A DNA stretch of 64,000 nt from a virus (lineage: Duplodnaviria; Caudoviricetes). Within the stretch, counting starts at the first letter, position 1; each line of letters begins with the position of its first letter. Below, one piece after another: positions 5,586 through 6,400 of this stretch. The position numbers and the translations under genes were made by a program. The stretch covers positions 16,181 to 80,180 of the IMG/VR virus record IMGVR_UViG_3300028805_000094; one strand, written 5' to 3'. The notes under the pieces are model-generated. The model did not search any database. It worked only from the letters and a program-made list of their open reading frames with translations, and was not told the origin of the DNA.

Positions 5586-5611
5586 AAAAAAGAAAACCAC
5601 CCGAAGGCGGT
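5586..5611 (-). terminator. intrinsic terminator directly after the tRNA-like RNA
   Basis: Minus strand ACCGCC-TTCG-GGTGGT followed by TTTCTTTTTT, 2 nt after the CCA. Confidence 0.85.
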
Positions 5612-5613
5612 AA

Positions 5614-5731
5614 TGGTGGAGAGTGGGAGAATTGAACTCCATCCCTCATGGGACGACCCCCTTTTGCATGGGTCTACGCAATCATCTTTCGATTTACCGC
5701 GGTGGCTCCCCTGATGCCACGTTCACTCCCC
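5614..5731 (-). ncRNA. 118-nt tRNA/tmRNA-like RNA with G3:U70 alanine identity and encoded CCA
   Basis: 5' GGGGAGT pairs with ACTCTCC, followed by ACCA; T-arm GGAG-TTCAATT-CTCC; four internal hairpins instead of a canonical cloverleaf; terminator downstream. Confidence 0.8.
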
Positions 5732-5746
5732 ATAAAAGGGAAGGGC

Positions 5747-6142
5747 TTACGCCCCTTCCTTCAAGCGGTAGGTATTCGCCTTGCCCTTAGTCTCGATAAT
5801 GTCCAGTTCGTCACGCATCTCACGCAGGAGAACGTTCTGAACCTTCGCAACCGAGAAGTCCTCGGGCAGTTCATTCTGAACCATTCCAAACAGTTCCTTC
5901 ACGGTTACACCCTGCAACGTGTGGGACAGACCCTCGCGCAGGATGGGCGCAACCTTAGCAACGAGTTCGGCACGAGCGGCGGCAGTCTTAGCCTTGCGCG
6001 CAGAGTTCGCGGCTTCCTTCTGCTCAGGCGTGCGCGTGCGCTTCTGGTCAAGCTGGGCAATCATGGCTTTAATCACGGTCTTAGCATCGGTATCATCAGC
6101 CATGGTAGAGAGGGCGAGGGTGAGAGCATCTTTCTTAGTCAT
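5747..6142 (-). CDS. winged helix-turn-helix protein, paralog 3 of 4
   Basis: VTVKELFGMVQNELPEDFSVAKVQNVLLREM...KGKANTYRL. Confidence 0.65.
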   Translation of the reverse strand: MTKKDALTLALSTMADDTDAKTVIKAMIAQLDQKRTRTPEQKEAANSARKAKTAAARAELVAKVAPILREGLSHTLQGVTVKELFGMVQNELPEDFSVAKVQNVLLREMRDELDIIETKGKANTYRLKEGA

Positions 6143-6400
6143 ATCATTTACCTTTCTGGTTTGTTGAGGTTTTCCTTCCTCTGTTGTGTCCTTATTTTAT
6201 CATGGACTTTGAATTTTGTCAAGAGGTTTTTCAAACTTTTTTTTGATTTTTTTCAATCATGGCGTTTCCTCTTGCTTGTGTCATGCCGGTGTGCTGTTCG
6301 CTCCTGACATTGTTTATTATACTCATTTTAGAGAAAAGTGCAAGAGGAGGGATTAGATGTTTAACATCTAACTATATAACAGGCACGAAGCCTGTCAGTC

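Follow-up and report, generated by a model that had tools for sequence, protein, structure and literature searches.

The locus examined here raised the question of which kind of RNA is encoded by a 118-nt stretch that resembles an alanine transfer RNA (tRNA) at its ends. The stretch occupies positions 5614-5731 on the minus strand of the window, by which the whole analyzed DNA of 64 kb is meant. The window belongs to a record of the IMG/VR database (G000; 80,180 bases) that came from ruminant gut samples and is estimated to be 46% complete. An earlier note on this DNA had described an RNA that resembles a tRNA, has an alanine acceptor and lacks a message domain, had called the acceptor tmRNA-style (after transfer-messenger RNA, tmRNA), had suggested that the RNA may titrate SmpB, EF-Tu or alanyl-tRNA synthetase or act as a nuclease decoy, and had considered it relevant to the reassignment of UAG in this phage. 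The first part of this description was upheld, since the G3:U70 wobble was found in 19 of the 19 aligned sequences and the UGA codon of a candidate open reading frame (ORF) was not conserved; neither the label nor the link to UAG withstood comparison. We are highly confident that the gene specifies a real alanine-type tRNA mimic that does not decode.

The RNA gene extends from G1 at 5731 to the terminal A of CCA at 5614, scores 139.6 bits with covariance model R1, begins with GGGGAGUG and finishes with CACUCUCC-A-CCA. Its minimum free energy (MFE) fold was calculated at -49.6 kcal/mol (z = -3.2), and only one of 200 shuffled sequences folded equally well. The G+C content of the gene was 0.56 versus 0.35 for the whole window. 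The 5' strand of the acceptor stem is formed by RNA nt 1-8 (5724-5731, with G3 at 5729), and the 3' strand by nt 107-114 (within 5614-5625, with the equivalent of U70 at 5620), after which A73 and the encoded CCA follow (5617-5614). The T arm (5626-5640) consists of a 4-bp stem, GGAG/CUCC, and the loop UUCAAUU. The elements listed in the earlier note, that is, the GGGGAGU/ACUCUCC acceptor, G3:U70, A73, CCA and the T loop, were all present on the minus strand. The layout, however, had to be corrected: G8 pairs with C, and the acceptor and T stems are therefore 8/4 and not 7/5, with the stack still totaling 12 bp. The lack of U8, which had been listed as a separate peculiarity, follows from this eighth pair.

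The four internal hairpins that had been named from the sequence were all present in the MFE fold. Hairpin 1 (5702-5720) resembles a D arm; it is predicted to have the stem GUGGC/GCCAC and a 9-nt loop, A..GGG(G/A/U)A, in which the A14, GG and A21 pattern of a D loop can be recognized when the sequence is set against general knowledge of tRNAs. Hairpin 2 (5677-5701) abuts hairpin 1 with no linker nucleotide between them and is composed of a 6-bp stem, an AA/G internal loop, a 3-bp stem and a GNRA tetraloop, which is GAAA in this sequence. Hairpin 3 (5655-5674) has a 5-bp stem and an A-rich loop containing (U)UGCAAAA; this loop is 10 nt long here and 8-14 nt long across the homologues. Hairpin 4 (5641-5654) is small and optional, and its loop is AUGA in the window. 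Hairpins 2, 3 and 4 occupy the position that the anticodon and variable arms have in a tRNA.

Scanning IMG/VR, JGI metagenomes and GTDB genomes for sequence patterns, and adding one locus reached via a neighboring protein, yielded 20 distinct homologues of 110-121 nt, which were located on rumen or gut phage contigs and were 68-99% identical to the window RNA. A search of IMG/VR by the neighbor protein alone gave zero loci, and neither the RNA nor a 20-kb part of the window was matched by a GenBank phage in blastn searches. Nineteen sequences were aligned by fitting them with R1. In this alignment, 98.4% of the paired cells held a pair (100% in the eight acceptor pairs), a figure that is biased toward pairing because the alignment was fitted to the structure of the model. 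The bias is partly answered by a slide control, in which shifting the pairing partners cut pairing to 42-60%. Changes on both sides were found in 12 pairs as compared with 3.5 +/- 1.3 in shuffles, none of 500 of which reached 12; since the homologues all come from one phage clade, these counts include inherited changes.

Covariation was present in acceptor pairs 5, 6 and 7, in the upper stem of hairpin 2 (AU to GC or the reverse in eight sequences, UA to CG or the reverse in two), in hairpin 3, where three pairs were altered on both sides, and in two of the four pairs of the T stem. Of the internal hairpins, comparison among phage homologues, which had been proposed as a check, supported the upper stem of hairpin 2 and the stem of hairpin 3, while hairpin 1 was invariant. 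The T loop was likewise invariant, as were GGUAA and GAU around the internal loop of hairpin 2, and the 3' terminal ACCA was so in all members. The tetraloop of this hairpin stayed within the GNRA class (GAAA, GCAA or GUAA). Hairpin 4 was missing in two homologues (L021 and L058), and its loop was AUGA, GUGA, AAGA or GAGA elsewhere. The RNA copies of G000 and of a related phage, G001, were 91.6% identical, whereas the structural proteins of the same two phages were 50-75% identical; the RNA was near-identical in L114, although the adjoining protein was only 55% identical. These 118 nt form a true gene for a small RNA, on which strong purifying selection acts in its own right.

Two members of the family were found on contigs that metagenomic binning, on which the host assignment is based, places with Acutalibacteraceae genomes. 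R1 detected the RNA in one of 151 sampled genomes of this candidate host family, and the one positive genome was a bin with a phage-like contig. Therefore, the RNA belongs to the phage and not to the cell, and a cellular origin was rejected.

G3:U70 is the established identity rule of alanyl-tRNA synthetase (AlaRS). Within the acceptor helix, pair 4 varied on one side and pairs 5-7 on both sides, while pair 3 was GU throughout. Because the wobble was kept amid covarying neighbor pairs, it can be concluded that recognition by AlaRS is under selection. With G3:U70 in the acceptor helix, A73 and CCA, the sequence contains the identity elements of an AlaRS substrate, and the RNA can probably be loaded with alanine without decoding. 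The 8/4 layout is known from the (8/4) allo-tRNAs, some of which carry G3:U70 and which occur in phages and bovine rumen Clostridia (PMC5389517). Natural 8/4 tRNAs with G3:U70 supported efficient translation of an amber codon in E. coli, in an assay designed for in vivo charging by AlaRS (PMC5389517); therefore, this layout is compatible with AlaRS, EF-Tu and the ribosome. The RNA shares with the allo-tRNAs the 8-bp acceptor and 4-bp T stem (G8:C is invariant and two T-stem pairs covary) and the 12-bp stack. Allo-tRNAs, however, have a normal 7-nt anticodon loop and decode, whereas the RNA has neither feature and no functional anticodon arm was found in it.

As the earlier note had anticipated, ARAGORN called the gene neither a tRNA nor a tmRNA, and it found none of either kind in the 64-kb window or in the whole 80-kb record. 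Rfam returned nothing for the gene at gathering thresholds, and a permissive search likewise gave no match to the tRNA model. The top half of a canonical tRNA can be recognized in the 12-bp acceptor/T stack, the T loop of the UUCRANY type and a D loop with GG (GGG here); a cloverleaf whose anticodon arm combines a 5-bp stem with a loop of 7 nt was not found. There is no conserved anticodon loop in the aligned homologues: hairpin 2 ends in a tetraloop, and the 8-14-nt loop of hairpin 3 has UGC, UAC or no triplet at its center, with UGC being lost in L028, L039 and L038.

The commonest loop of hairpin 3 contains CUUGCAA, which is the anticodon loop of tRNA-Ala(UGC) of G001. Furthermore, when hairpin 2 was deleted in silico, relaxed ARAGORN called three of the 19 variants tRNAs, with hairpin 3 as the anticodon arm. 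Both results weakly favor an origin from tRNA-Ala. The RNA has G3:U70, A73 and CCA in common with the tRNA-Ala(UGC) of phage and host and differs from it by the extra GNRA arm after the D arm, the enlarged loop and the 8/4 layout. It was also observed that tRNA-Ala(UGC) of G001 (L097:2679-2752) has an unusual T loop, AGCGUUA versus UUCRANY, and is still called a tRNA by ARAGORN. Two other roles for the loop of hairpin 3 were considered and rejected. Self-complementary UUGCAA as a dimerization site was not conserved (AUGCAA, UUACAA, AUACAA and CUCAAA occur), and pairing of the loop with UUUUGCA downstream of the terminator was possible only in this window and is thus attributable to chance.

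The possibility that the RNA is an odd but working tRNA, which would use the hairpin 3 loop as a UAG suppressor or as a frameshift or quadruplet decoder, is suggested by the genetic code of the phage. G000 reads TAG as sense, since a frame of 4917 codons is open only then, and no tRNA gene, including a suppressor, was found in its 80,180 bases; the tRNA block of G001 lies in a part without a counterpart in G000. The three ARAGORN calls mentioned above also speak for a working tRNA. Nevertheless, the triplet CUA does not occur in the RNA sequence, the length and triplets of the hairpin 3 loop vary, and the RNA is also found in G001. The latter genome is complete (181 kb), uses the standard code (a frame of 5160 codons is open in table 11) and has 19 tRNAs and no suppressor. 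In addition, opposite the in-frame TAG codons the orthologues of G001 mostly have Gln (53 of 147 positions, the next most frequent residue accounting for 15) and not Ala; judging by this alignment, TAG is most likely read as Gln in this phage. A suppressor tRNA was therefore rejected on the lack of CUA and the presence of the RNA in a standard-code relative, and a working tRNA of any such kind is very improbable, being close to refuted.

The relevance to UAG reassignment that had been proposed earlier was right in that TAG is a sense codon here. However, because a standard-code relative carries the same RNA, the RNA is not tied to recoding, and this link was rejected. As a separate observation, G000 and G001 (L105-L112, L097, L098) are syntenic phages of approximately 180 kb with different genetic codes, which makes them well suited to a study of the gain or loss of recoding.

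A message within the RNA was also sought. A 7-codon tag (AUG/UUG CAA AAG ... UGA) can be read across hairpins 3 and 4, with its stop codon in the loop of hairpin 4, as would be expected of a miniature tmRNA. The frame was open in the first four sequences, one of which (L004) differs by exactly 3 nt, and the position of UGA in a hairpin loop is reminiscent of the stop codons in helix 5 of tmRNA. However, the loop is AAGA or GAGA, without UGA, in L005, L008, L013, L019 and L043, and hairpin 4 is the one missing in L021 and L058. No other frame with a conserved stop was found, and length differences among the homologues are not multiples of three. The tag peptide was thus refuted by the comparative data, UGA being lost in at least five homologues, and a miniature tmRNA is extremely improbable.

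A more serious alternative is that the RNA is a true tmRNA without a coding sequence (CDS), that is, a derivative of ssrA that was reduced to its tRNA-like domain (TLD), as in mycobacteriophage DS6A, and that titrates SmpB and blocks trans-translation. tmRNA was the best match in Rfam: in a permissive search of a 551-nt region, the tmRNA model (RF00023) gave 15.5 bits (E = 3e-4), which is below its gathering threshold of 47 bits, and aligned the acceptor and T-arm ends only. The T loop of the RNA is identical to that of the tmRNA of the host-bin genomes, in contrast to UUCGAUC in the tRNA-Ala genes of the same genomes, and the acceptor of L058 differs from that of the host-bin tmRNA by one extra A:U pair. 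The score was calibrated with ordinary tRNAs of the candidate host-bin genomes, which gave 17-33 bits on the tmRNA model, and with the TLD-only RNA of DS6A (JN698994, 28478-28560), which gave 43.2 bits with helix 2 aligned. Considering that the ordinary tRNAs and the DS6A RNA both scored higher, the Rfam match is not evidence of tmRNA ancestry, and membership in the tmRNA family on this basis was rejected.

The structure also differs from that of a tmRNA. An mRNA-like domain, in which a resume codon would be followed by an in-frame stop, was not found. A tmRNA has no D stem, and its helix 2 closes the body beside the T arm; in the window RNA, the acceptor is followed by a predicted local 5-bp hairpin that resembles a D arm, and a long-range helix is neither predicted nor conserved. 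The alanine acceptor and T arm are those of a tmRNA, but they are common to tRNA-Ala and do not discriminate between the two. SmpB contacts tmRNA at the motifs UCGAC in the D loop and GGAC just ahead of the T stem; at the latter place, the homologues differ from one another (GGAU, GAAU, UAUA, GGCU, CAAU). The 8/4 layout instead of 7/5 is a further difference. For these reasons, the tmRNA-style label of the earlier note was abandoned, and a CDS-less tmRNA is judged unlikely, even with the precedent of DS6A.

The DS6A RNA is nevertheless among the closest known systems. Like the window RNA, it is phage-encoded and has G3:U70, a tRNA-type T arm, no anticodon and no tag frame, and the role proposed for it, competition with tmRNA, is similar in nature to the one considered here. 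On expression in E. coli, it inhibits tmRNA (Hudson et al. 2014, PMC4131195; Mao et al. 2009, cited in PMC11915505). However, the DS6A RNA is 83 nt long with stems of 7/5, retains helix 2 and the D loop of tmRNA and ends in CUA at the DNA level, whereas the window RNA has 118 nt, an 8/4 layout, a D-arm-like hairpin with three more hairpins and an encoded CCA. The D-loop motif, helix 2a and near-threshold score that characterize a TLD-only tmRNA of this type were not found in the window RNA. Because R1 scored the DS6A RNA at only 17.4 bits, the two RNAs do not form one family.

CDS-less tmRNAs are also known from jakobid mitochondria and Mallomonadaceae plastids (PMC1370551, PMC11915505). They are, like the window RNA, alanine-type, message-less and under selection; unlike it, they are approximately 65-100 nt long, are clearly derived from tmRNA and co-occur with SmpB, whereas no phage SmpB and no tmRNA-specific signature were found in the present case. 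In the course of the searches, short alanine-acceptor RNAs of 70-104 nt were observed on four unrelated metagenome contigs (L023:448-517, L044:565-664, L041:5969-6072 and L024:1256-1352), and those of L023, L041 and L024 adjoin tRNA genes. The first three scored 37.7, 25.2 and 23 bits, respectively, on the tmRNA model, and the RNA of L024 scored 20.6 bits on R1 and had no Rfam match. All four look like additional cases of a message-less tmRNA or a tRNA-Ala mimic.

Phage T4 encodes the small stable RNAs C and D (species 1 and 2), which are tRNA-associated and of similar size and may offer a parallel to the window RNA. A tRNA mimic of the YrlA type received no support, as there was no Rfam match and no TROVE domain in G000, G001, G002 and G005. 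The architecture of the RNA is shared by none of the DS6A RNA, the organellar CDS-less tmRNAs and the 8/4 allo-tRNAs, and no Rfam family matches it.

The surroundings of the gene bear on how the RNA is made. Upstream of it lies, on the same strand, an ORF of 131 aa (5747-6142, minus strand), the AlphaFold model of which (predicted local distance difference test, pLDDT, of 83.5) has a C-terminal winged helix. Compared by fold, this model weakly resembled the DNA-binding domains of Fur, ArsR/SmtB and MarR (best E = 0.011). A terminator-like hairpin with a weak U tract (5739-5759, minus strand) contains the stop codon of this gene and lies 7 nt before G1. An intrinsic terminator (5586-5611, minus strand) follows CCA; it consists of a hairpin with a UUCG loop (5611-5596) and a U tract, and it is kept in relatives with the same gene order. 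The stop codon 15 nt upstream of the RNA and the UUCG terminator after it had both been pointed out earlier and are correct. The nearest promoter upstream of the RNA in the window is of the sigma-70 type (TTGACA, 17 nt, TAAAAT; 6194-6222, minus strand), and no promoter was found in the window between the winged-helix gene and the RNA gene. The two genes are probably co-transcribed.

Two gene orders were found. One, which the window shares with six relatives, places the RNA after the winged-helix gene and before the terminator. The other occurs in nine relatives: a consensus promoter dedicated to the RNA (TTGACA-17-TATAAT) ends 11 nt before G1, and the RNA, which runs into the next promoter and lacks a terminator of its own, stands at the 5' end of the transcription unit of the next gene. 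L038 also has its own consensus promoter for the RNA. Relatives in which the winged-helix gene is 49-56% identical have no RNA within 6 kb and a single terminator at this place; therefore, the RNA is an optional cassette. The winged-helix protein was also considered as a partner of the RNA and was rejected, since its model weakly resembles DNA-binding domains and four lineages of its homologues have no RNA within 6 kb. Searches of Pfam and PHROGs with ten early ORFs, including both neighbors of the RNA, gave no family match at threshold.

Two side observations were made in this region. A 32-nt stretch of the window that lies upstream of the winged-helix gene (6151-6182) occurs in many contigs of RNA libraries with different flanks and a summed depth of up to approximately 355, as expected of a leader common to many early transcripts of this phage group. 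Just upstream of its RNA copy, G001 has a cassette (L009:300-470) with the promoter TTGACA-17-TATACT and no obvious ORF, after which come approximately 110 nt that are rich in G+C and prone to form hairpins; the early region may thus encode a second small RNA at this place.

These arrangements could also be explained if the RNA were a cis-acting, tRNA-like processing or stability element, through which RNase P and trimming punctuate early transcripts and protect mRNA ends, the released RNA having no role. The position of the RNA between an upstream terminator-like hairpin and a second terminator, its location at the 5' end of the next unit in the other subgroup and its nature as an optional cassette agree with this explanation. 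However, G3:U70 and an encoded CCA, which such an element could do without, are both invariant. Conservation extends to the internal hairpins and to their GNRA and CAAAA loops, and nine relatives have a dedicated consensus promoter for the RNA. A processing element is therefore considered quite unlikely.

What, then, could the RNA do? The best reading, to which we assign about an even chance of being right, is that of an early, RNase P-processed and AlaRS-chargeable mimic of tRNA-Ala that does not decode and serves as a decoy or competitor. The RNA would be made early, in the window by read-through from the promoter of the winged-helix gene, and in the other subgroup and L038 from its own consensus promoter. 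RNase P would cut its 5' end, as suggested by the presence of a leader in every arrangement, and the 3' end would be trimmed to CCA. Host AlaRS would then charge the RNA with alanine. Since it cannot pair with a codon, the RNA would act away from the message, either as a decoy of or in competition for a host factor that recognizes tRNA-Ala-like RNAs by their top half. This last function, taken by itself, is put forward tentatively, with our confidence falling a little short of even.

The likeliest targets are alanine-dependent ribosome rescue, by tmRNA-SmpB or RqcH, and a tRNA-directed defense enzyme, with any single named target being rather unlikely at best. The candidate host genomes encode tmRNA, SmpB and RqcH. 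In one version, which is likewise doubtful, the RNA would be an anticodon-less adaptor charged with alanine that enters, poisons or hijacks ribosome rescue (tmRNA-SmpB on the 70S ribosome or RqcH tailing on the 50S subunit), with the invariant module of hairpins 1 and 2 as the handle for the targeted factor. If this were true, the phage would decide whether stalled nascent chains are tagged for degradation. RqcH is known to select tRNA-Ala partly via the anticodon stem-loop (PMC8373112).

With respect to defense, genes for RNA ligases of the T4 Rnl1 type (PF09511) were found in one RNA-bearing relative and in one other relative (G005:C1:5799-6383, L123, and L121:11752-12447) and were not found in G000, G001 and G002. 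In T4, Rnl1 repairs tRNA that has been cut by a host anticodon nuclease. The presence of such ligases in relatives suggests a conflict over tRNAs in this phage group.

Alternatively, the RNA could carry or sense alanine outside translation, either as a donor to a tRNA-dependent transferase or by binding AlaRS or a T-box leader and thereby reprogramming the metabolism of alanine tRNAs. The retention of alanine identity with the loss of decoding is in line with such a role, as is the motif UUGCAA of tRNA-Ala(UGC), which the hairpin 3 loop mostly keeps. However, no candidate transferase was found beside the RNA, the ten early ORFs being without a family match, and UGC is lost in the three homologues named above. 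Such a carrier or sensor is accordingly regarded as improbable.

Several points weigh against the decoy or competitor. Nucleotides 8-56 of the RNA are nearly invariant, more so than pairing requires, which argues for a specific macromolecular partner, and this partner could be something else entirely. The same invariance means that the stem of hairpin 1, which showed no variation in 19 sequences, is neither proven nor refuted as a pairing. UCGAC and GGAC, at which SmpB contacts tmRNA, are either lacking or not kept among the homologues, and, as published TLD-SmpB structures suggest, the stack of hairpins 1 and 2 would occupy the place of SmpB on tmRNA, which makes a tmRNA-like complex with SmpB less likely. 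None of SmpB, an RF-1 domain, Ro60 (TROVE) and RtcB was found in four related phage records. Charging with alanine is itself deduced from the identity set. A decoy of a multiple-turnover enzyme needs a high copy number. In four metatranscriptome runs, only low-depth pieces were found at 5593-5640 and 5699-5976, none of them spanning the gene; these are contigs, which give neither ends nor strand and may include DNA carry-over.

In phages, tRNA genes are commonly interpreted as aids to codon usage or as substitutes for tRNAs that host defenses have destroyed. The RNA described here belongs to a small, sharply defined family and is a variant among phage tRNA mimics, a kind already known. What it retains of a tRNA is limited to the parts that RNase P, AlaRS, EF-Tu and elbow-binding factors recognize; decoding has been given up. 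The RNA changes at a slower rate than the structural proteins of the phage and is under strong early promoters, which implies a role other than codon reading. Its independence from stop-codon recoding removes an attractive but wrong lead. If the target is ribosome rescue or a tRNA-directed defense, the RNA would be an RNA-based countermeasure, of a type that has been documented once so far, for DS6A, by heterologous expression.

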